From the NCBI RefSeq assembly GCF_964213995.1, contig NC_135810.1:67704001-67768000 (forward strand): DNA of 64,000 bases, read 5' to 3'. Made by a program: the position numbers and the translations under genes. Below are positions 1,038 to 54,114 of the stretch, piece after piece; position 1 is the stretch's first letter; each line of letters begins with the position of its first letter. Source of the DNA: Mustelus asterias (taxonomy: Eukaryota). The notes below the pieces were generated by a model. It was not told where the DNA came from and did not search any database. It was given only the letters and a program-made list of their open reading frames with translations.

Positions 1038-1576
1038 GAAGCCTCACAACACCAGGTTAAAGTCCAACAGGTTTCTTTGGTAGCACAGCCACGAGCTTTC
1101 AGAGCGCTGCTCCTTCATCAGATGAGTGGGATTTCAGTTCACAAACAGGACATATAAAGACATAAACTCAATTTACAAAATAATGGTTGGAATGCGAGTC
1201 TTTACAGGTAATCAAGTCTTAAAGGTACAGACAATGTGAGTGGAGAGAGGGTTAAGCACAGGTTAAAGAGATGTGTATTGTTTCCAGCCAGGACAGTTAG
1301 TGAGATTTTGCAAGCCCAGGCAAGTTGTGGGGGATACAGATAGTGTGACATGAACCCAAGATCCTGGTTGAGGCCGTCCTCATGGGTGCGGAACTTGGCT
1401 ATCAGTCTCTGCTCAGCGACTCTGCGTTGTCCTGTGTTGTGAAGGCCGCCTTGGAGAACGCTTACCCGAAGATCAGAGGCCGAATGCCCGTGACCGCTGA
1501 AGTGTTAACCAACAGGAAGAGAACATTCTTGTTTGATGATTGTCGAGCGGTGTTCATTCATCCGCTGTCGTAGAGT
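1038..1576 (-). mobile_element. Penelope-like element fragment: GIY-YIG endonuclease C-terminus plus pseudo-LTR
   Basis: Minus strand translates TLRQRMNEHRSTIIKQECSLPVG*HFSGHGHSASDLRVSVLQGG...AEQRLIAKFRTHEDGLNQDLG, followed by a pLTR containing CTGATGAAGGAGCAGCGCTCTGAAAGC; truncated at the minisatellite. Confidence 0.85.
1050..1128 (-). ncRNA. Degenerate minimal hammerhead ribozyme in the Penelope pLTR
   Basis: CUGAUGA core, stem II (GGAGC-AGC-GCUCU), then GAAA at 1121-1097; stem III is imperfect in this copy. Confidence 0.55.
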
Positions 1577-3230
1577 CCCCCCCCACACGCACTCTTCGCC
1601 CCCACATGCACCCTCCCGCCCCGCACGCACTCTCCTCCCCGCACGCACTCTCCTCCCCGCACGCACTCTCCTCCACACACGCACTCTCCTCCCCGCACGC
1701 ACTCTCCTCCCCGCACACACTCTCCTCCCCGCACGCACGCACTCCCCCCCCGCCCCCCACATGCACTCTTCCCCCCCGCACATACTCTTCCCCCCGCACG
1801 TACTCTCCCCCCGCACGTACTCTCCCCCCGCACGTACTCTCCCCCCGCACGTACTCTCCCCCCGCACGTACTCTCCCCCCGCACGTACTCTCCCCCCGCA
1901 CGTACTCTCCCCCCGCACGTACTCTCCCCCCGCACGTACTCTCCCCCCGCACGTACTCTCCCCCCGCACGTACTCTCCCCCCGCACGTACTCTCCCCCCG
2001 CACGTACTCTCCCCCCGCACGTACTCTCCCCCTGCACGTACTCTCCCCCCGCACGTACTCTCCCCCCCGCACGTACTCTCCCCCCCGCACGTACTCTCCC
2101 CCCCGCACGTACTCTCCCCCCCGCACGTACTCTCCCCCCCGCACGTACTCTCCCCCCCGCACGTACTCTCCCCCCCGCACGTACTCTCCCCCCCGCACGT
2201 GCTCTCCCCCCCGCACGTGCTCTCCCCCCCGCACGTACTCTCCCCCCCGCACGTACTCTCCCCCCCGCACGTACTCTCCCCCCCGCACGTACTCTCCCCC
2301 CCGCACGTACTCTCCCCCCCGCACGTACTCTCCCCCCCGCACGTACTCTCCCCCCCGCACGTACTCTCCCCCCCGCACGTACTCTCCCCCCCGCACGTAC
2401 TCTCCCCCCCGCACGTACTCTCCCCCCCGCACGTACTCTCCCCCCCGCACGTACTCTCCCCCCCGCACGTACTCTCCCCCCCGCACGTACTCTCCCCCCC
2501 GCACGTACTCTCCCCCCGCACGTACTCTCCCCCCGCACGTACTCTGCCCCCGCACGTACTCTGCCCCCGCACGTACTCTGCCCCCGCACGTACTCTGCCC
2601 CCGCACGTACTCTGCCCCCGCACGTACTCTGCCCCCGCACGTACTCTGCCCCCGCACGTACTCTGCCCCCGCACGTACTCTGCCCCCGCACGTACTCTGC
2701 CCCCGCACGTACTCTGCCCCCGCACGTACTCTGCCCCCGCACGTACGCTGCCCCCGCACGTACTCTGCCCCCGCCGCACTCTGCCCCCGCACGCACTCTT
2801 CCCTCCCCGCACGCACACTTCCCCCCCCCCCGCACGCACTCTCCCCCCCCGCACGCACTCTCCCCCCCCCGCACGCACTCTCCCCCCCCCGCACGCACTC
2901 TCCCCCCCCGCACGCACTCTCCCCCCCCGCACGCACTCTCCCCCCCCCGCACGCACTCTCCCCCCCCCGCACGCACTCTCCCCCCCCCCCCGCACGCACT
3001 CTCCGCCCCCCCGCACGCACTCTCCGCCCCCCCGCACGCACTCTCCGCCCCCCCGCACGCACTCTCCGCCCCCCCGCACGCACTCTCCGCCCCCCCGCAC
3101 GCACTCTCCGCCCCCCCCGCACGCACTCTCCGCCCCCCCCGCGCGCACTCTTTCCCCCCCCCCGCGCGCACTCTTTCCCCCCCCCGCGCGCACTCTTCCC
3201 CCCGCACGGACACTCCCCCCTGCACGTACC
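1577..3230. repeat. GC-rich minisatellite, 17-20 bp unit GCACG(T/C)ACTCT(C/G)Cn, arranged in blocks of variants
   Basis: Directly visible tandem array; explains the five or six long stop-free ORFs at 1505-3387. Confidence 0.97.
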
Positions 3231-3559
3231 CTTGCTCTCCCCTCATTCCCCCTTTCTCCCCTTTACATTCCCTCCCTCTAATCCCTCAGGCAACTACCTC
3301 TGCTCCCTCAGATTCCCCTTTCACTCTCTATTTCTCTCTCTCACAGTCTCCACTTACTCACTCAGATGCCAGTGTGCCCTGCTTTAGTTTGCCCTGGTCC
3401 CACATTGGCTCTCTTGTGTCCCGCTCTGGTTCCCTTGTGCCTACTCTAGCTCCCTCACATCCTGTTCCCTGACCTTGGAACATATCTCAAAAACTTAACC
3501 TCCCTCTGTTTACTGCTTGTCCAATCATAGGCTGGTTTCTCTCTGCATTTGCTGCTGAT

Positions 3560-3692
3560 GGGTCACTAGTGAGCTCGCTTTACAGCACTTTTAAAATACG
3601 AATCAGTTGAATATTCAATAAGTTTGGCATGCTGAGTCTAGAGGCCTCAGCAGCTGTGATGTGGCCTGCGGGCTGTGAATTGGACAAGTCTG
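3560..3692. mobile_element. Possible right end of a hAT/Charlie-like non-autonomous element
   Basis: GTGGCCTGCGGGCTGTGAATTGGACAAGTCTG followed by GGCTAGA resembles Charlie-type termini; partner end not found. Confidence 0.35.
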
Positions 3693-4062
3693 GGCTAGAT
3701 GGTTTCATTTTTCAGTGAAAGCTGATAACTTGCTGACTAGACTCTTGGTTGTCCATTTGAATAGCATCTTCAGTTATCTGTGTGCATTTGGCACTAGTCG
3801 TAAGATTGCCAAGACTAGTAGCTATTAGCTGCTTGAAGCAGAACCTCAAAAGTAGTAATCTCTGGATTTTTATTTGAGCTGCATGTAAATTGCCATAGGA
3901 CAAATAAGTTTAGGCAAATGAATGCATGACTCAAAGATTGGTATAGGAGAAGTTGGTTCTAATTAGAGGCAGACTTTCACTTTTGGAGGCCCCACGCTCT
4001 GCCTCTATGTTAGAACTTCCCATGACATCACATTCTCTCTCCCCCCTGCCCCTGCCCCTGTT

Positions 4063-4846
4063 TCTGCTCCCGCCCCAGCCCCACCGCTCCCGCCCCAGCC
4101 CCACCGCTCCCGCCCCAGCCCCACCGCTCCCGCCCCAGCCCCACCGCTCCCGCCCCAGCCCCACCGCTCCCGCCCCAGCCCCACCGCTCCCGCCCCAGCC
4201 CCACCGCTCCCGCCCCAGCCCCACCGCTCCCGCCCCAGCCCCACCGCTCCCGCCCCAGCCCCACCGCTCCCGCCCCAGCCCCACCGCTCCCGCCCCTGCC
4301 CCACCGCTCCCGCCCCAGCCCCACCGCTCCCGCCCCAGCCCCACCGCTCCCGCCCCAGCCCCACCGCTCCCGCCCCAGCCCCACCGCTCCCGGCCCAGCC
4401 CCACCGCTCCCGCCCCAGCCCCACCGCTCCCGCCCCAGCCCCACCGCTCCCGCCCCAGCCCCACCGCTCCCGCCCCAGCCCCACCGCTCCCGCCCCAGCC
4501 CCACCGCTCCCGCCCCAGCCCCACCGCTCCCGCCCCAGCCCCACCGCTCCCGCCCCAGCCCCACCGCTCCCGCCCCAGCCCCACCGCTCCCGCCCCAGCC
4601 CCACCGCTCCCGCCCCAGCCCCACCGCTCCCGCCCCAGCCCCACCGCTCCCGCCCCAGCCCCACCGCTCCCGCCCCTGCCCCACCGCTCCCGCCCCAGCC
4701 CCACCGCTCCCGCCCCAGCCCCACCGCTCCCGCCCCAGCCCCACCGCTCCCGCCCCACCGCTCCCGCCCCAGCCCCACCGCCCCAGCCCCACCGCTCCCG
4801 CCGCCCCAGCCCCACCGCTCCCGCCCCACCGCTCCAGCCCCACCGC
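4063..4846. repeat. Minisatellite, 20-bp unit CCCCACCGCTCCCGCCCCAG, about 34 near-perfect copies plus a degenerate end
   Basis: Directly visible; rare variants (CCCCTG, CGGCCC). Confidence 0.97.
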
Positions 4847-4934
4847 TGGTGATGTCAAGACCCATCCACCAGTGATGTCAAACCTCTGCTCAAATGACAT
4901 CATTGACCTCCTGACCACACCCACCCTCAGTTCC

Positions 4935-5262
4935 CACAATGCAAGTCACAAAAATACAGAAAAGTACATAGTTTAATGCTTCAATGCTTTTTAACTTACA
5001 AAAACAAGCCGTAATTGATCCATTCAAATCCACAATGCAAGCCACAGGAACCCAAAAAAGTACAAGTACACAAATCACTGCTTACTGCTTCAGTGCTTTG
5101 TAATCAATGAAAGCAAGTCTATAACTGATTAATTCAAATTCAAATCCACAATACAAGCTACAAAAATATAAAAAAAACAGATGACAAATCACTCCTTAAC
5201 TGCTTTAGTGCTTTTTAACTTATGAAAACAAGCCTGGAATTAATCAATTGAAATCCAAGCCT
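4935..5262. repeat. About three degenerate ~100-bp tandem repeats (CCACAATGCAAG...ACAAATCAC...GTGCTTTTTAAC...AACAAGCC), probably subterminal repeats of the hAT element
   Basis: Motifs recur at ~4935, ~5030 and ~5146. Confidence 0.6.
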
Positions 5263-5456: not shown

Positions 5457-5716
5457 TGTTATAATATAACCAACGATAACATACTGTGAGGGTCAGCTGA
5501 CCTGGTAGACAATGTAACCACTGACAAAATGATGTAATGGTCAGCTGATCCAGCATAAATACGAAGCAACTGGGCATTGTGGGGAGCTTGTACGGTCCAA
5601 GGTGTGGCCCCAAGTGTTGCAGTAATGAAGTTTATTTATTAAATCTTTTTATTTGACTTACTTTCTGAAGTTCTTTTATTGCTTGCAACTGAAGTACTCC
5701 TGCTGCTGGATGAACA
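5457..5716 (+). repeat. 5' LTR of the Copia element
   Basis: TGTT...AACA ends; aligns by eye with 12075-12357. Confidence 0.85.
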
Positions 5717-5717
5717 C

Positions 5718-5730
5718 TGGTAGCAGAGGA
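5718..5730 (+). promoter_or_regulatory. Primer-binding site complementary to the 3' end of initiator tRNA-Met
   Basis: TGGTAGCAGAGGA, 1 nt after the LTR end; matches tRNAiMet ...UCCUCUGCUACCA. Confidence 0.85.
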
Positions 5731-6910
5731 AAACCCATTGTAGCTTGGTATTTGTTTTGTAAGGCCTGAAGTGGTGTTACAGACTCAGGACATTACCATA
5801 GGAGAAGGTAGAAGCAAACATGCATTGTTTGACTGTCCCAATGTCTTTTCGGATGCCGAACCACACCAACAATGGAAGGCAGAAGTGGAAATGTGGACGC
5901 TTGTTACTACAATATCGAGGAAAAAGCAAGGTATGGCCTTAGCTTTGTCACTTCTGGCCAGAAGTAAGATAAGGAGCAAAGTGTTTTCTCATTGGACTGC
6001 AGATGCCCTAAATAAAGAAGAAGGGTTGCAGCTTCTGTTGCAATATCTAGATAGGTTTTACCAAAAAGATGAGTTTTTGGAGAATTATGAAGGTTGGATG
6101 ATTTTTGACAGTATTAGAAGACAGGAAAACCAGTCCATAGAGGAATATATCATGGATTTTGATAGGGGCTGTAACAGGCTAATGAAATTTAATTTGTAGA
6201 TTCCAGATGTGGTATTGGCCTTTAAGTTGTTGGACTGTGCGTATTTGTCTCAGATGGACACTCATCTGGGGATGACTGGAGTTAAGGAAACAGAGGCCCT
6301 CCTTGATCAAATGATAGCATCATTAAAAAAGTTTTTTGGGAAACAATCGTTCCCTTTCACTTTTTTCAATTCAGATTGGAATGTTATAGCACCCAGAATA
6401 GAGGATTTAGTGGTAGCTCAGCTGCGTTCTTGACCAAATGGCACACAATGGCCCCTAAACTGAGCCATTTACACTAATAATAGATCTGATGCTGAAACCA
6501 GATATAACCAATTTGATGATGGAGATAGAAGATGCACATGGGAGGGTGATAGAAGATGTTTACAATGAAGAAATAGAAAAGGGATTATGAATCACTGTTT
6601 TCAATGCCATATCACTACATAGTGAATTGTCCAAAAAGAAGAAATTAAGTCTTTGAAACCACACACAAAACAGAATACATAGAAACTGACAGTGATGAAG
6701 ATAAGGACCATGAAGGCATTGTTTTGGTCACAGAAAAATTGAGCCCAATAATGAGTGTGCTGATGTTTGACTCTTTCAGTTTTGGATAGTGGATGTACAT
6801 CAACTGTATGTGGCAAAGATTGGCTAAACTGCTATTTAGGGTCCCTTGATCATAAAGAGTGAAAGAAAGTTAAAGAATGTGATACTTTTGCCAGTTTTCG
6901 ATTTGGAGAT

Positions 6911-7729
6911 AGAAACATAGAAACATAGAAAACTACAGCACAAAACAGGCCCTTCAGCCCCACAAGTTGTGCCGAACATATCCCTACCTTTTAGGCCTAC
7001 CTATAACCCTCCATCCTATTAAGTCCCATGTACTCATCCAGGAGTCTCTTAAAAGACCCTATTGAGTTTGCCTCCACCACCACTGACGGCAGCCGATTCC
7101 ACTCGCCCACCACCCTCTGTGTGAAAAACTTCCCCCTAACATTTCCCCTGTACCTACCCCCCAGCACCTTAAACCTGTGTCCTCTTGTAGCAGCCATTTC
7201 CACCCTGGGAAAAAGCCTCTGTGAGTCCACCCGATCTATGCCTCTCAACATCTTATATACCTCTATTAGGTCTCCTCTCATCCTATGTCTCTCCAAGGAG
7301 AAAAGACCGAGCTCCCTCAGCCTATCCTCATAAGGCATGCCACTCAATCCAGGCAAAACAGCCTTGTAAATCTCCTCTGCACCCTTTCAATCTTTTCCAC
7401 ATCCTTCCTGTAATGAGGCGACCAGAACTGAGCACAGTACTCCAAGTGGGGTCTGACGAGGGTCTTATATAGCTGCATCATTATCCCCGGACTCCTAAAC
7501 TCAATCCCTCGATTGATAAAGGCCAGCACACATACACCTTCTTAACCACCTCCTCCACCTGCGGGACCAATTTTAGAGTCCTATGGACCCGGACCCCAAG
7601 GTCCTTCTGATCCTCTACCGTACTAAGAGTCTTTCCCTTTATATTGTACTCCTTCATCCCATTTGGCCTGCCAAAATGGACCACGACGCATTTATCTGGG
7701 TTGAAGTCCATCTGCCACTTCTCCGCCCA
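6911..7729 (-). mobile_element. CR1-clade LINE 3' fragment inserted in the Copia protease region
   Basis: ORFs with LVRPHLEYCAQFWSP and RLRELGLFSLE; (TTCTATGT)n tail; interrupts FRFGD|DDH. Confidence 0.92.
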
Positions 7730-9028
7730 TGATGATCATACTTTAACTTACTCCAAAAGGGTGGTACTTCCCTGTAGAATTGCAGGAATCAGCTTGTTCA
7801 TAAGTACAGATGCTGTTTCAAGTGACATATCTTTGTTATTAAGCAGGTCTGCCATGAAAAAAGCCCAGATGACTATCGATTTGAAGCATGACAAAGCTGT
7901 GGTATTTGGAAGATGTGTAGATCTACATTTTAGAAGGTCAGGCCATGATTGCCTTCCCTTAAGTGAACTGAAAATGTCTAACCAAAGGATTCATGATGCA
8001 TTAGTGTTGCTTACAGACAACAGCTTGATGGACAAAAAAAATTATTTTGCAACTTCGTAAGCAGTTTGCTCAGCCAGCACCACAGAGACTGAGAGCATTG
8101 ATGCAGGTGTGCTGGATAAAGGCTATAATGATCTCTTAGAGCAAATATCAGCCCAGTGTGAGATTTGTACAAAATATGAAGGAACCTCCGCGTCCAGTCA
8201 TGAATCTACCATTAGCCCAGGATTTCAACGATGTAGTGGCGATGGATTTGAAGATTTGGGGTAAAGGCAAAGGCATCTATTTATTATGTTTCATGGACAT
8301 AGCAACCTGCTTTAGCATATCTACAGTGATTTACACCAAAGATAAAAAGACTATTGTGGACAAAATTCTGACTTATTGGCTTGGAACTGGGTTGGGAGCA
8401 CTGTCTAAATTCTTGACAGATAATGGGGGTGAATTTGCAAATGATAAGTTCCAAGATGTGTGCGAAAATTTAAATATTATGGTGATGCACACTGCAGCAG
8501 AAAGCCCATTCAGCAATGGCCTCTGTGAATGGAATCATGCAGTAATAGATGATATGCTGCATAAGGTTTTGGCAGATCAACCAGGTCTACTATAAAAGAG
8601 AGGGTCTAAAAGAATGGAAAGGGCCAGGTAAAGTGATCAGGACGGATGGCAAAATAGTTTACCACAACATGGTAACCAGACAATGTGAGCCCACTCTTCG
8701 AGAATAGTGGGAATTGATTATGATTTTGGAGCATCTGAACAGGTTGTAGAAATACAAGAAGCACCTTGTACCTCATACCTCGTATACACATACCTTGAGC
8801 AGCTATAGATGAGAGGGAATCTGATGACCAGCTAAGCAACAGTGAGGCAGGGGATGAAGTTGTTACTTCAAAGGTTCAGTTACCCGAAGTGGTATCATAC
8901 ATATTCAAAGGATCAAGTGACAGATGCCACAATAATTGGAAGAGTAGGAAAAGCCTCAGGAAAGTATAAACACTGGCTCAACATCCAAGAGCAAGGGCAA
9001 AAAGCGAAAGATATAGATTGGGAAAATT

Positions 9029-48371: not shown

Positions 48372-48399
48372 TATTTTGGAACTCTGCGAAGCATGAGAG

Positions 48400-48715
48400 T
48401 GTGGTTAACCATCGTTGGTTCCCACTGGATAGTACTGAGCCAGGGGCTGGCCAGTACTACGAGGATGTACATATGTTACGGTTGGGTTGTGCTATTGTTG
48501 CTGTTGGGGTTAGGGTGGGGTTGTTACACCTTTGTACTGTAGTGTTGTGGCACATCCCAGTCGGGCTCCGCCTCCTGGGAGAGGTATAAGAGTCCCTGCT
48601 CTGGCCGGGACCCCTTCAGTCTGGGATAGTGTATATAAGTTCTGGCAGCTTCGTTACAGTAAATAAAAGCCTTTCATTTACTGAGCTTCAGGCCTCGTGT
48701 TTGAGTAGCGCATCA
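48400..48715 (+). repeat. 5' LTR (TATA-like motifs at ~48585 and 48632; AATAAA at 48662)
   Basis: Direct repeat of 52811-53126. Confidence 0.96.
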
Positions 48716-48760
48716 ATTTTATTTACTGTCGTTAAACTCTCGTTGAAAAAAAGAGAGAGT

Positions 48761-51700
48761 GTGGAGCAAATTCTGAAGCCGGAACGCCTTACGCTAGATC
48801 CACGTGCGGTGGGCGCTTCTAACACCTTCGACCACTGGCTGAAGTGTTTCGAAGACTACCTGGCAGCCTCCGCAGCGGTCACCACAGATGATGACAGACT
48901 CCGGGTCCTCCATGCGAGGGTAAGCGACACTGTCTACCTCGCGATCCGTGCGGCCACCGATTATACTAAGGCCCTCGAGCTTCTGAAGAAGCGCTATATC
49001 AAAGCACCCAATGAGATACACGCTCGTTACCTCCTAGCCACTCGACGACGGCAGTCTGGCGAAACGATGGAGGAATATGCAAACGAGCTCCTACAGCTAG
49101 CCAGGGGCTGTGTCTGCAAAGCTGTGTCGGCTGAGCAGAGCATGTACGACCTCGCCCGAGATGCGTTTGTGGCTGGGGTCGGATCGTCGTACATTCGACT
49201 TAAACTGTTGGAGAAGGGTAACCTTAATCTTAACCAGGCCATCAAGTTAGCAGAGATGCTCGAGACGGCCTCCAAAAGCTTAGTATTATATCCGGAGGAC
49301 CATGTGGAGACAACGTGGCAGGAGCAGTCGCTAATCCCTCCTCGTCCCTCGGGTTCGAAATGCTGCGTAATGGCGTGCTCCCACTCGGGCCAGACGACGG
49401 CAGCAGCCCCGGGCGGCCCACGGTGCTATTTCTGTGGGGGAGCGAAGCATACTCGGCAAAAGTGTCCCGCTAAAGCTGTGTTGTGCACCGCATGCGGTAA
49501 AAAAGGCATTATTCAAAAGTGTGCCGATCTAAACCCAGGAATGGCAGTGCGGCCTGCGATTCTTCAGAGCTCGGGCCTTCGTCGTCGAAGTCATCGCGGG
49601 GTTCGTCCACGTGCGAGACCAGGACGACGCCATTACGGTCGACGGAGTCGGAGAGTATGACCACCAGGGGTCGCTGAGTTTGGCGCCCTCACCCACGTGC
49701 GACTCATGGGGGCGGCCATGTTGGTCGACACTGACCACGAACGACCAGCAGGGGTCCTCCTCATCGATTTCAGCTGCCTGCAGTGGCGCTCATGAACCAA
49801 CGGTGGCGTCTATCATCCTGGACCAGGCCAAGCCTCATAGACTTGACAAATCTATGATGAATATCCAGGTAAATGACCACGTGATTTATTGTCTGTTTGA
49901 CAGCGGGAGCACTGAGAGCTTTATCCACCCAGACACTGTGAAGCGTTGTGGACTCCAGATTCAACCTGCCAAACAGACAATCTCTATGGCATCAAGGTCC
50001 CGGTCTGTTGCCGTGCTAGGGAGTTGCGTGGTAACCTTGAAGGTGCAAGGCACAGTTTACGAGCGTTTCAAGCTCCTTGTGTTGCCGTATCTTTGCGCGC
50101 CAATACTTCTCGGACTAAACTTCATGGTCCACTTGAGGAGTGTAATCCTACAGTACGGTGGGCCACTCCCTTCACTGGCAGTGGGAAAACAGCAGCAGCC
50201 TCCAAATTGCCCAACGCGCCCCGCCTGCAGCCTCTCGACGCTGAAGATCACCACACCCTCCTTGTTCCAGAATCTTGTGCCAGGCTACAAGCCCATCGCG
50301 ACTAAAAGTAGGTGTTACAGCGCTGAGGATGGATCTTCATGAGATCTGAGGTTCAGCGGCTCCTCAAAGAAAGGATCATACAACCCAGTGCTAGTCCGTG
50401 GAGAGCGCAGGTCGTGGTGGTCAAGAGCGGGAACAAACCCCGGATGGTCATTGACTACAGTCAGACCATTAACCGATATACGCAGCTGGATGCGTAACCC
50501 CTCCCGCGCATATCTGATATGGTCAATCAGATTGCGGAGTACAGGGTGTTCTCCACCATAGACCTCAAGTCTGCCTACCACCAACTCCCCATTCGCCCAG
50601 AGGACCGACAATACACGGCTTTTGAGGCGGATTGTCGCTTGTATCACTTTCTCAGGGTTCCCTTTGGTGTCACCAATGGGGTCTCGGTCTTCCAGCGTGC
50701 TATGGACCGAATAGTGGACCAGAACGGGCTGCGGGCTACCTTCCCGTACCTGGATAATGTCACCATCTGCGGCCATGACCAGCAGGACCACGACACGAAT
50801 CTCCTGAACTTCCTACGCACTGCATCTCGCCTGAACTTGACCTACAACAGGGAGAAGTGTGTGTTTCGTACGCGCCGTTTAGCCATCCTAGGATACGTGG
50901 TGGAAAACAGGGTCATTGGCCCTGATCCAGACCGTATGCGCCCCCTTTCTGAACTTCCCTTACCTGCTAGTGCAAAAGCACTGAGAAGATGCTTAGGCTT
51001 CTTCTCTTATTATGCGCAGTGGGTTCCCAACTACGCGGATAAAGCCCGTCCGCTCATTAAGTCCACAACTTTTCCCTTAACGCCAGAGGCCCGATTGGCC
51101 TTCGATAAATTGAAAGCCGACATCGCGAAAGCTACGATGCACGCTGTAGATGAGTCCATCCCCTTTCGGGTGGAGAGCGATGCATCTGATTTCGCCCTGG
51201 CCGCCACACTTAACCAGGCGGGCAGGCCCGTCGCATTTTTTTCCCGCACCCTCCAAGGCCCCGAAATGCGGCATTCAGCGGTGGAAAAGGAGGCCCAGGC
51301 CATTGTGGAGGCCGTCAGGCACTGGCGCCATTATTTGGCGGGAAAACGGTTCACCCTGATCACGGACCAGCGGTCCGTGGCGTTCATGTTTAACAACACG
51401 CAGAGGGGCAAGTTCAAGAATGACAAGATCTTGCGGTGGAGAATTGAACTCTCCACCTATAACTACGACATCATGTACCGTCCAGGGAAACTCAATGAGC
51501 CCTCGGATGCCCTCTCGCGTGGAACATGCGCTAGTATACAGGAGGACCGTTTGCACACCCTCCATAATGACCTGTGCCATCCTGGGGTCACTCGGCTCTA
51601 CCACTTTATAAAAGCCTGCAACCTGCCTTACTCGGTGGAGGACGTCAGGTCAGTAACAAGGAGCTGTCGGGTTTGCGCGGAATGCAAACCGCACTTTTAC

Positions 51701-52747
51701 CGACCTGACCGGGCACATTTAGTCAAGGCCACTCGTCCCTTCGAGAGACTGAGTGTCGATTTTAAGGGCTCCCTTCCCTCAACAGATCGGAATGTGTACT
51801 TCCTCAATATCATTGACGAGTACTCTCGGTTCCCTTTTGTTGTTCCCTGCTCTGATACATCCGCTGCCACGGTTATCAAGGCATTCCGTGATCTCTTTAC
51901 CCTGTTTGGGTACCCCGGCTACATCCATAGCGACAGGGGCTCGTCGTTCATGAGCGATGACTTGAGGCAATTCCTGCTCTCCTACGGGATTGCCTCTAGT
52001 AGGACCACGAGCTACAACCCTAGGGGTAATGGACAGGTGGAACGCGAGAATGCTACAGTCTGGAAGGCTGTCTTACTGGCGTTGAAGTCAAAAGGTCTTC
52101 CAGTCTCCCGTTGGCAAGAGGTGCTCCCTGATGCGCTCCATTCTATTCGCTCCCTCCTGTGTACGGCAACCAATGCTACTCCCCACGAGAGGATGTTCTC
52201 ATTCCCTCGGAAGTCTTCCTCGGGGACCTCATTACCGTCTTGGTTGACGTACTCAGGACCCGTCCTCCTGCGGCGACATGTAAGGGCCCGCAAGTCCGAC
52301 CCGTTGGTCGAACAGGTCCATCTCCTCCACGCCAACCCTCAGTATGCCTATGTGGCATACCCTGACGGGCGAGAGGACACGGTCTCGATCCGAGACCTGA
52401 CGCCAGCAGGGGACGTAGCAACCCCTGTCACTCCCATAGCCCCTGTAACAAACCCTTTATCTCTTGTTTCTTCCCCGGACACGGCGCGGGCAGCATCGGG
52501 ACCATTGCTTAACCATTTTACTCCCATGTACAGCTTGCCTGAGCCCAGAAGATGGTCGCCACCGCAGGGCGTGTCAGGATCCCATGGACTACCGTCACCT
52601 CAGGGTCAACCGGCCTGTGAGTCCGTGGAAGAACAGCTGGACGCCGCCTTGGGGAGAACGCCACCGCAAGTGCCTACTCCGGTGTCACCGCCGGTATTGA
52701 GGAGGTCACAGCGACGGTGCGGTCCCCCTGACCGTCTGAACTTATAG
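48761..52747 (+). pseudogene. gag-pol: Gypsy gag-pol with few lesions: GTG at the likely start, frameshifts at ~49505 and ~50331, TAA at 50495
   Basis: Two CCHC knuckles (CYFCGGAKHTRQKC; CTACGKK/HYSKVC); PR LFDSGS; RT IDLKSAYHQ, PFG, YLDN; RNase H ESDASD/EKE/TDQ/DALSR; integrase HHCC, DFKG, SDRG, VERE. Confidence 0.93.
50519..52747 (+). CDS. pol: Uninterrupted 742-aa RT-RNase H-integrase portion of Pol
   Basis: ORF track; motifs listed above. Confidence 0.8.
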   Translation: MVNQIAEYRVFSTIDLKSAYHQLPIRPEDRQYTAFEADCRLYHFLRVPFGVTNGVSVFQRAMDRIVDQNGLRATFPYLDNVTICGHDQQDHDTNLLNFLRTASRLNLTYNREKCVFRTRRLAILGYVVENRVIGPDPDRMRPLSELPLPASAKALRRCLGFFSYYAQWVPNYADKARPLIKSTTFPLTPEARLAFDKLKADIAKATMHAVDESIPFRVESDASDFALAATLNQAGRPVAFFSRTLQGPEMRHSAVEKEAQAIVEAVRHWRHYLAGKRFTLITDQRSVAFMFNNTQRGKFKNDKILRWRIELSTYNYDIMYRPGKLNEPSDALSRGTCASIQEDRLHTLHNDLCHPGVTRLYHFIKACNLPYSVEDVRSVTRSCRVCAECKPHFYRPDRAHLVKATRPFERLSVDFKGSLPSTDRNVYFLNIIDEYSRFPFVVPCSDTSAATVIKAFRDLFTLFGYPGYIHSDRGSSFMSDDLRQFLLSYGIASSRTTSYNPRGNGQVERENATVWKAVLLALKSKGLPVSRWQEVLPDALHSIRSLLCTATNATPHERMFSFPRKSSSGTSLPSWLTYSGPVLLRRHVRARKSDPLVEQVHLLHANPQYAYVAYPDGREDTVSIRDLTPAGDVATPVTPIAPVTNPLSLVSSPDTARAASGPLLNHFTPMYSLPEPRRWSPPQGVSGSHGLPSPQGQPACESVEEQLDAALGRTPPQVPTPVSPPVLRRSQRRCGPPDRLNL

Positions 52748-52796
52748 ACTGCTGACACTTTATTCTGTTTTTTGTACCCCGCCGGCCTTTGTTCTC

Positions 52797-52810
52797 AAAG
52801 GAGGGGTGAA
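52797..52810 (+). promoter_or_regulatory. Polypurine tract
   Basis: AAAGGAGGGGTGAA immediately before the 3' LTR. Confidence 0.9.
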
Positions 52811-53126
52811 TGTGGTGAACCATCGTTGGTTCCCACTGGATAGTACTGAGCCAGGGGCTGGCCAGTACTACGAGGATGTACATATGTTACGGTTGGGTTG
52901 TGCTATTGTTGCTGTTGGGGTTAGGGTGGGGTTGTTATACCTTTGTACTGTAGTGTTGTGGCACATCCCAGTCGGGCTCCGCCTCCTGGGAGAGGTATAA
53001 GAGTCCCTGCTCTGGCCGGGACCCCTTCAGTCTGGGATAGTGTATATAAGTTCTGGCAGCTTCGTTACAGTAAATAAAAGCCTTTCATTTACTGAGCTTC
53101 AGGCCTCGTGTTTGAGTAGCGCATCA
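52811..53126 (+). repeat. 3' LTR
   Basis: Direct repeat of 48400-48715, followed by the TSD. Confidence 0.96.
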
Positions 53127-54114
53127 GAGAGACAGAGAGAAATACAGTCAGGTTGGTGTTCCATTCCGTTACCTTCAGACCCTTCCTACACCCCTTGTCC
53201 TCCCAATTCTGGAAGCTGTAAACCCTGCACCTTATCCAGCAATCAGCACTCACTCACATGCCTGAGGCCCTTCTAACCTCATCGTTTGACTGGCCTCCCC
53301 CCTTCAGAATTGCCTGTTGGCTCACGGTTGGTTGTTCCCTCCCTTAATCTCAACATCACAGGGGGTTCTGGCAGGTTGTTTCAAAGCCCATCCCTCATAT
53401 GCAGGGTCAACTGAATACCTGTGTGAACACAGGGCTTTTGCATCCTCTAAGGCAGTCGTTGGGTATTGGCTACAAGGCTCAACACATTCCCTCCTGATGC
53501 CTTGCACTCAACCCATTCTTGATGCATGAGGTTCCAACCCTCTCCTTGACTTTGAGACTGTGGACAGCTGACATTGGTAAGACAAGTTAGACAAGCAGGG
53601 CTCTCAGGAATGTTAGAGGGCACAATTACTTTCTGAGGCACAGGCAGGTGACACACATAAGCACTGTTCATACTCAGGCTTTGTCACCCCGTGATCTAAT
53701 TGCTGTCAAGCTTTCGCACTTAAGACTCCAGGGCAGTCACCGCATTAACTCAAAATACTGCGCGACAGCCCCCTCCTTCCTCATTATTGTCCTGCTTTCT
53801 CTTTCAGGGTCCCATCCAGCCAGCTTTTTAAGGTTGCCTCCTACAATCTCGTCAAATCCTTCCCCCTCACATCATGAGCCCACTCCACTAGATGGCCCAT
53901 TCCCCCAGGCCACAAATGGCTTTAAACTGTGTGCTTATTCTCATTTCTTTGCCACATAGGCAGAAGAATCATTCATGGCAATGAAAAAGTTTTCAAACAG
54001 AGAGACTTCCTCTAGAATCACTTAGGGCAGTCAGCAGCTGTAGAAACCGAAAGCCTTTACTCTCATTATTGGCTCTGATGGGTTTTTAAGAAAGATAGGC
54101 TGCAGAAATTAAAA

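Follow-up and report, generated by a model that had tools for sequence, protein, structure and literature searches.

The element and its relatives

The window, a stretch of 64,000 nucleotides of the Mustelus asterias genome, contains a Ty3/Gypsy retrotransposon of 4,727 bp at positions 48400-53126 (Table 1), which is flanked on both sides by the target-site duplication (TSD) GAGAG and bounded by 316-bp TG..CA LTRs with two differences between the 5' and 3' copies. Its gag-pol region contains two zinc-knuckle motifs, a protease (PR), a reverse transcriptase (RT) with a YLDN motif, an RNase H (RH) and an integrase (IN), and the Pfam matches to the last four domains were found in the Gypsy order. 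The TG..CA LTRs, the TSD, the polypurine tract (PPT) and the PR-RT-RH-IN order place the element in Ty3/Gypsy. A Pfam chromodomain was absent from the pol of the window copy, from one genomic copy with a long open frame and from five homologs, which agrees with the preliminary description of a chromodomain-less Gypsy with two CCHC motifs. Among the top named matches, the nearest proteins were those of rays and sharks (79-83% identity), followed by proteins of a nematode and of a sea anemone (60-62%). With 118 scored RT matches at 96-100%, the family is large and young; the viral contigs that were scanned contained no relative. At another locus (L012:1200-1600), a copy of the same family lies in reverse orientation inside the LTR of a related family.

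Table 1. Features of the Gypsy element and of its predicted RNA (positions in the window)
Feature	Positions	Strand	Remarks
Left TSD, GAGAG	48395-48399	+	
5' LTR, 316 bp, TG..CA	48400-48715	+	two differences from the 3' LTR
TATA-like box	48585-48590	+	conserved; predicted main promoter; spacing kept in 7 of 9 own-genome families
Initiator-like TCAGT, predicted start A48618	48616-48620	+	predicted by homology for the window's family
Predicted primer RNA, 51 nt	48618-48668	+	38-nt 5' tail plus 13-nt pairing stretch
TATATAAG	48632-48639	+	within the predicted R region
R stretch, predicted partner of 48763-48767 in the gag start region	48648-48652	+	MFE fold
Pairing stretch	48656-48668	+	AATAAA at 48662-48667; conserved G at 48659
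GCC 3' of the predicted cut	48669-48671	+	opens a predicted stem
Spacer, 1 nt, from LTR end to primer site	48716	+	A in 25 of 27 families, the 1-nt offset being the anchor of the family analysis
Primer-binding site (PBS)	48717-48729	+	complement of 48656-48668
gag-pol	48761-52747	+	three open pieces in the window copy; start codon is GTG
PPT	52797-52810	+	directly before the 3' LTR
3' LTR	52811-53126	+	second copy of the pairing stretch at 53067-53079
Right TSD, GAGAG	53127-53131	+	

The window also contains tandem arrays of 17-20-nt units (1500-4980) and a decayed Copia-like element (about 5463-9000) that is interrupted by a LINE-like fragment. This Copia element had been said to have an ordinary tRNA primer site, and a TGG-type site is indeed present at about 5719.

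A primer site complementary to the element's own R region

The primer site of the Gypsy element begins 1 nt past the CA at the end of the 5' LTR, where there is no TGG, and its letters (48717-48729) are the exact 13-nt reverse complement of 48656-48668, a stretch that ends one base past AATAAA. Both the perfect complement and the lack of a TGG-type tRNA site had been reported from the window alone, and both were upheld by the wider comparison: the match between PBS and R is exact in 28 of 30 close copies, and TGG was found within 0-3 nt of the CA in none of the 27 families described below. The end of the LTR together with the PBS and two further letters occurs 452 times genome-wide. A search with Rfam gave only three weak, unrelated matches and no tRNA or snRNA match at the site.

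The complementarity of the PBS to R exceeds chance. When the sequence upstream of gag was searched without an anchor, its longest inverted repeat free of mismatches reached at least 11 nt at 71 of 107 own-genome loci and at 27 of 30 metagenome loci (45 of 80 metagenome loci had no gag start and 5 were skipped because of too little upstream DNA). Among the controls, a repeat of this length occurred in none of 137 windows inside gag and in 4 of 1370 dinucleotide shuffles.

For the analysis of covariation, relatives were found in the same genome with divergent Gag queries and in metagenome contigs with an RT alignment, their RTs being 43-64% identical. Anchored on the position after CA, 96 of 144 loci passed and formed 28 groups, and the removal of one group, an inversion (L216), left 27 families, 9 from the same genome and 18 from metagenomes. 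Pairing was kept with changed letters in these 27 families, which have 24 different 11-mers; two to four pair types occurred at each of the positions 4-11 counted from the end of the stretch, and the final three positions were nearly always A. A G:C pair 10 nt before the end of the stretch (48659 in the window) was found in 26 of 27 families, whereas the neighbouring pairs vary, and this conserved G(-10) is possibly a recognition base. GCC or ACC directly follows the stretch in 26 of 27 families, forming an A|RCC-like site. Among 756 pairs of one family's PBS and the LTR of another, only 8 gave a match of at least 11 nt. Helix length ranges from 11 to 19 bp across families and is 24 bp in one copy, the otherwise normal element L296, in which the complement of the primer site takes in the gag start codon. 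In a single-copy element (L112), the spacer is a C that pairs with a G after the A-run, one base more.

TGG-type sites are instead present in two further Gypsy lineages of this genome, where the self-complement was at most 8 nt at all 18 loci with a repeat pair, a few of whose boundaries were mis-called. In a quick tree that contained just two unnamed outgroup lineages beside them, the self-complementary rows formed one clade (SH-aLRT 99). A Gypsy lineage that is abundant and young, with open frames of up to about 2000 aa (L363-L371, L376), has a TGG-type primer site 3-4 nt past the LTR.

The preliminary description had proposed self-priming and had named covariation between the R segment and the PBS of relatives as a test of it. 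Such covariation is seen across the 27 families, and together with the fixed geometry it lends the proposal strong support. A host tRNA or tRNA fragment is implausible as a match to all 24 of the different 11-mers. A chance match or a local duplication, to which the AT-richness of the pairing stretch might point, has a negligible probability and is refuted by the covariation, since paired stretches with changed letters occur in most relatives and are nearly absent from the controls.

Predicted promoter and start of the RNA

A TATA-like box followed about 31-34 nt downstream by a TCAG or TTAG initiator was found in 7 of the 9 own-genome families, with the TATA 82-86 nt and the initiator 48-53 nt upstream of the end of the pairing stretch. 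In the window, the TATA at 48585 and the initiator A48618 are 84 and 51 nt before this end. The same rule found nothing in the 18 metagenome families, and the long primer proposed here is therefore supported only for this genome.

It had been suggested that the RNA starts at about 48656, driven by TATATAAG at 48632, so that the primer would be the 5'-terminal 13 nt of the RNA as in the classic Tf1 type. The motif is present as a second TATA-like sequence of the window's family beside that at 48585, and it is kept in this family and its sister subfamilies, to which it is confined; no instance of it was found in the less closely related own-genome families, in which the upstream TATA and initiator are kept, and it is not the conserved promoter. 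Covariation and geometry fit a 5'-terminal primer equally well, and such a primer may be used in the metagenome families, for which no upstream promoter was detected. However, the distance of 24 nt from TATATAAG to the start is shorter than the usual TATA-to-start distance of about 30 nt, and in 5 of 9 own-genome families the gag start is a predicted pairing partner of the R sequence upstream of the stretch. The RNA of Tf1 and its relatives carries the self-primer at its 5' end (available text of PMC10085805). For the window's element we regard a 5'-terminal primer as unlikely, if still deserving some weight.

In four metagenome LTRs (L159, L183, L188, L193), a pyrimidine tract with CAG, resembling a 3' splice or trans-splice acceptor, lies 15-30 nt before the pairing stretch, and the LTRs of L126, L128 and L143 contain antisense words resembling 5' splice sites (e.g. 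CCTTACC) upstream of it.

Predicted folding and the poly(A) signal

The primer helix was present in the MFE fold of 26 of 27 families, and the first 4 nt after the predicted cut were paired in 22 of 27 families, compared with 8.4 expected. The overall stability of the window's leader was not unusual (z -0.67). The predicted pairing of upstream R with the gag start was significant in the 5 own-genome families mentioned above and was found in only 2 of 17 others, so that pairing of the gag AUG was rejected as a general feature outside this genome.

The hexamer A(A/T)TAAA lies inside the pairing stretch in 18 of 27 families, including the window's AATAAA, which had been overlooked in the preliminary description, and in one family a change from AATAAA to ATTAAA is accompanied by a matching change in the primer site. 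In the other 9 families the stretch has no hexamer, and 2 of these carry one in the loop. Because of these 9 families, hiding of the poly(A) signal is likely to be a side function of the helix and not its conserved core.

These observations bear on the possibility that the helix merely hides the poly(A) signal of the 5' LTR and the gag start, and that priming depends on another molecule, for instance a protein or a fragment of a host RNA. The hexamer in 18 families, its mirrored change in one of them and the fact that the complement follows the 5' LTR alone are what such a role would predict. On the other hand, it leaves the 9 families without a hexamer in the stretch (2 of them with a loop hexamer) unaccounted for, the fixed offset of 1 nt from the LTR end would be unnecessary for hiding, a host primer would need to fit 24 different 11-mers, and Rfam gave no tRNA or snRNA match at the site. 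We consider occlusion without self-priming to be quite improbable. In retroviruses, a helix hides the poly(A) signal of the 5' LTR, and U5:AUG pairing occurs. The window's clade is similar in having a helix over the 5' poly(A) hexamer and, in several own-genome families, pairing between upstream RNA and the gag start; unlike in retroviruses, which use tRNA primers, the hiding strand is here the primer site itself.

Aberrant insertions with reverse copies of the LTR

Some 75 insertions in the genome are aberrant: after their primer site, the sequence goes on with R and U3 of the LTR copied in reverse. They were found with patterns for primer sites that run on into the next upstream letters of the LTR; these patterns fix the junction, and therefore its exactness is not independent evidence. 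The pattern for the window's family had 34 matches, namely 14 junctions with a reverse LTR copy, 19 normal elements of a sister subfamily and 1 unclear case, compared with the 452 matches of the ordinary pattern. One pattern was too loose (57 matches compared with 36 in its control) and gained just four new junction loci. With all patterns, 97 loci were classed: the arm extends to the LTR start in 53 of them and continues past the PPT as far as pol in 5, and a further 35 loci were scored as truncated and 4 as normal. On inspection, 21 of the 35 were normal elements and 11 were true early stops, and L273, L279 and L305 reach the LTR start after a mutation or an internal deletion. Later additions were three arms that extend to the LTR start, one that enters the PPT and one that is interrupted. 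After removal of the duplicates L292 and L318, a perfect 5-bp TSD was found, within the DNA fetched, for 29 of 51 independent arms that reach the LTR start, which suggests that the palindromes were made before integration and were inserted by integrase.

Of the 11 early stops, five lie no more than 2 nt from the initiator A (binomial p about 1e-6 to 5e-5). These arms (L260, L282, L294, L315, L316) come from three or four related families, none of which is the window's own, and after the stop they switch to internal sequence; where the acceptor is visible, in L282 and L316, it shares 6-7 terminal letters, pointing to a switch at microhomology. Stops of this kind would be expected if a DNA copy was extended up to the 5' end of its RNA template, and would thus map the start independently of promoter motifs. 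An extra C copied from the cap in L315 and L316 is not claimed, since the acceptor in L316 supplies the same base. The five arms end about 52 nt from the junction and not about 13 nt from it, as a 5'-terminal primer would require, with search patterns that are blind to arms ending at 13-16 nt. Together with the upstream TATA and initiator conserved in 7 of 9 families, the arms indicate that the start formerly placed at about 48656 is probably wrong, and that the pairing stretch is likely internal in R, giving the primer a tail of about 38 nt.

Six other arms (L233, L239, L266, L269, L278, L340) continue from the primer site through U3 and the PPT into pol, which implies pairing with the 3' copy of R, at least in aberrant events. 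Furthermore, some palindrome arms differ at sites that are polymorphic in the family or by indels, and two templates were therefore used for some of them; a pure cis fold-back is excluded by these differences as the origin of every palindrome. Both observations are in favor of a variant that had been offered earlier, in which the primer site is occupied by the 3' end of the same RNA or of its dimer partner, and cleavage or trimming back to the end of the pairing stretch turns this 3' end into the primer. On the other hand, the 5' copy of the stretch is 48 nt from the site and folds locally with it in 26 of 27 families, whereas the 3' copy is 4.3 kb away, so that the variant becomes less likely for normal priming. 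The arms that stop at the initiator require a template that begins there, and most arms end exactly at the LTR start, as would be expected from run-off on plus-strand strong-stop DNA. We therefore regard regular priming by the 3' copy as unlikely.

The palindromes cannot by themselves prove the normal primer, since they need only a plus-strand copy of the PBS that pairs with R, and they could have arisen by mis-annealing of such a copy to R whatever primer is normally used. Differences between the arms were not enriched in the predicted primer part (20/1350 versus 75/4415, p = 0.74).

A proposed mechanism

We find it fairly probable that the element self-primes in a Tf1-like manner within a chromodomain-less clade, with an RNA that starts at A48618 and is cut after the pairing stretch to give a primer of about 51 nt. 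Transcription would begin at the initiator, and in the folded RNA nt 39-51 would be paired with the primer site. Cleavage at 48668/48669, after the A-run that closes the poly(A) hexamer, would then release the primer with its 3' end 1 nt from U5. The primer 3' end must adjoin U5, since it defines the end of the LTR. The cutting enzyme is likely the element's own RNase H, as in Tf1, and the 5' copy of the stretch is the likely source of the primer. The part of R from the cut to the poly(A) site could then serve for strand transfer. If an untrimmed primer were over-copied and the product re-annealed to R, the palindromes would result, and in the families that bear the hexamer, pairing and cutting may have the added advantage of inactivating the 5' poly(A) signal. 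If the primer is copied into the plus strand, the PBS would be rewritten from R in each cycle, which would explain the tight covariation. The model, derived from genomic sequence, predicts exact ends, namely an RNA 5' end at A48618 and a cut between 48668 and 48669.

Relation to known systems

To our knowledge, self-priming has been proven only for Tf1 and related chromoviruses. Tf1 and Tf2 of S. pombe, Tj1, Tosmo/Tcry and the Tf1/sushi group likewise lack a tRNA site and have a PBS complementary to their own R, and, in the available accounts of the Tf1 group, a cut is also needed for a 3' OH beside U5 and stems also flank the primer helix. In Tf1, the PBS is paired with the first 11 nt of the RNA, and the RNA is cleaved by RNase H between nt 11 and 12 (available text of PMC7175516). 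In about half of the Tf1 cDNA, a PBS copy at the plus-strand 3' end stays single-stranded (available text of PMC11042837), and a 'pretzel' structure of three duplexes is required (PMC10085805, in the part cited above). In contrast to the first 11 nt of Tf1, the stretch of the window's clade is apparently internal, about 38 nt past the predicted start, and its helix of 11-19 bp often overlaps the poly(A) hexamer and has the conserved A|RCC and G(-10). The primer helix and the stem after the cut are predicted here, but the third, leader-side duplex of the pretzel is not evident, and some families are almost without a leader. The clade also lacks the chromodomain that is usual for chromoviruses. 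For its lack of a chromodomain and its apparently internal primer, the element was not filed in the Tf1/sushi group.

Self-priming has also been predicted for the plant Tcn1 chromoviruses and for the Copia elements known as TAR (Houba, Osr-1), because their PBS is complementary to the LTR over 10 nt or more (available text of PMC6317226). These are other lineages in other hosts, and start mapping, a covariation test and aberrant integrants are not described in that part of the same source. Gypsy elements of the Mag lineage (A/B/C clades, MolGy3/11) and of unnamed mollusc and annelid clades share with the window's clade animal hosts, short LTRs, a Gag with two zinc knuckles, a single gag-pol frame and the lack of a chromodomain. 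The Gag of the window's clade is presumably similar to that of Mag. The term 'PBS' never occurs in the main text of PMC6238403. The article listings and passages covered by a literature search contained no report of self-priming in a chromodomain-less animal Gypsy clade.

We suggest, with rather more hesitation than for self-priming itself, that this is a widespread animal clade outside the chromoviruses in which self-priming evolved independently, with a capped primer of about 50 nt that is cut from within R directly after the poly(A) signal, and with a new class of palindromes. A single helix would then serve to prime DNA synthesis, to eliminate the 5' poly(A) signal and to gate the start codon of gag. 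If so, self-priming extends to an abundant, recently active clade of cartilaginous fish and other animals, with a primer design that differs from that of Tf1, and integrase-inserted palindromic LTR elements record both the primer junction and the transcription start. Mis-copied insertions can also map the start and the primer junction of a retroelement from genome sequence alone.

Palindromic insertions as a class

The palindromes consist of a full LTR, an A and a reverse copy of U3-R, with TG..CA at both ends and 5-bp TSDs. They belong to the window's family (L240, L241, L247, L251, L291) and to others (L261, L268, L271, L281, L299, L302, L303, L306, L317, L321, L323, L325, L358). Although these insertions resemble small inverted-repeat transposons, they originate from an LTR element, which identifies a source for inverted-repeat insertions of 400-600 bp; annotation tools would probably misread such insertions as DNA transposons or miss them. 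The article listings and passages covered by the literature search contained no report of palindromic LTR insertions of this kind. A second class of aberrant insertions (L237, L253, L263, L272, L276, L300, L307) has a perfect TSD and, as its left end, an inverted piece of U5 (the U5 att end), after which there is a template switch and the same primer junction.
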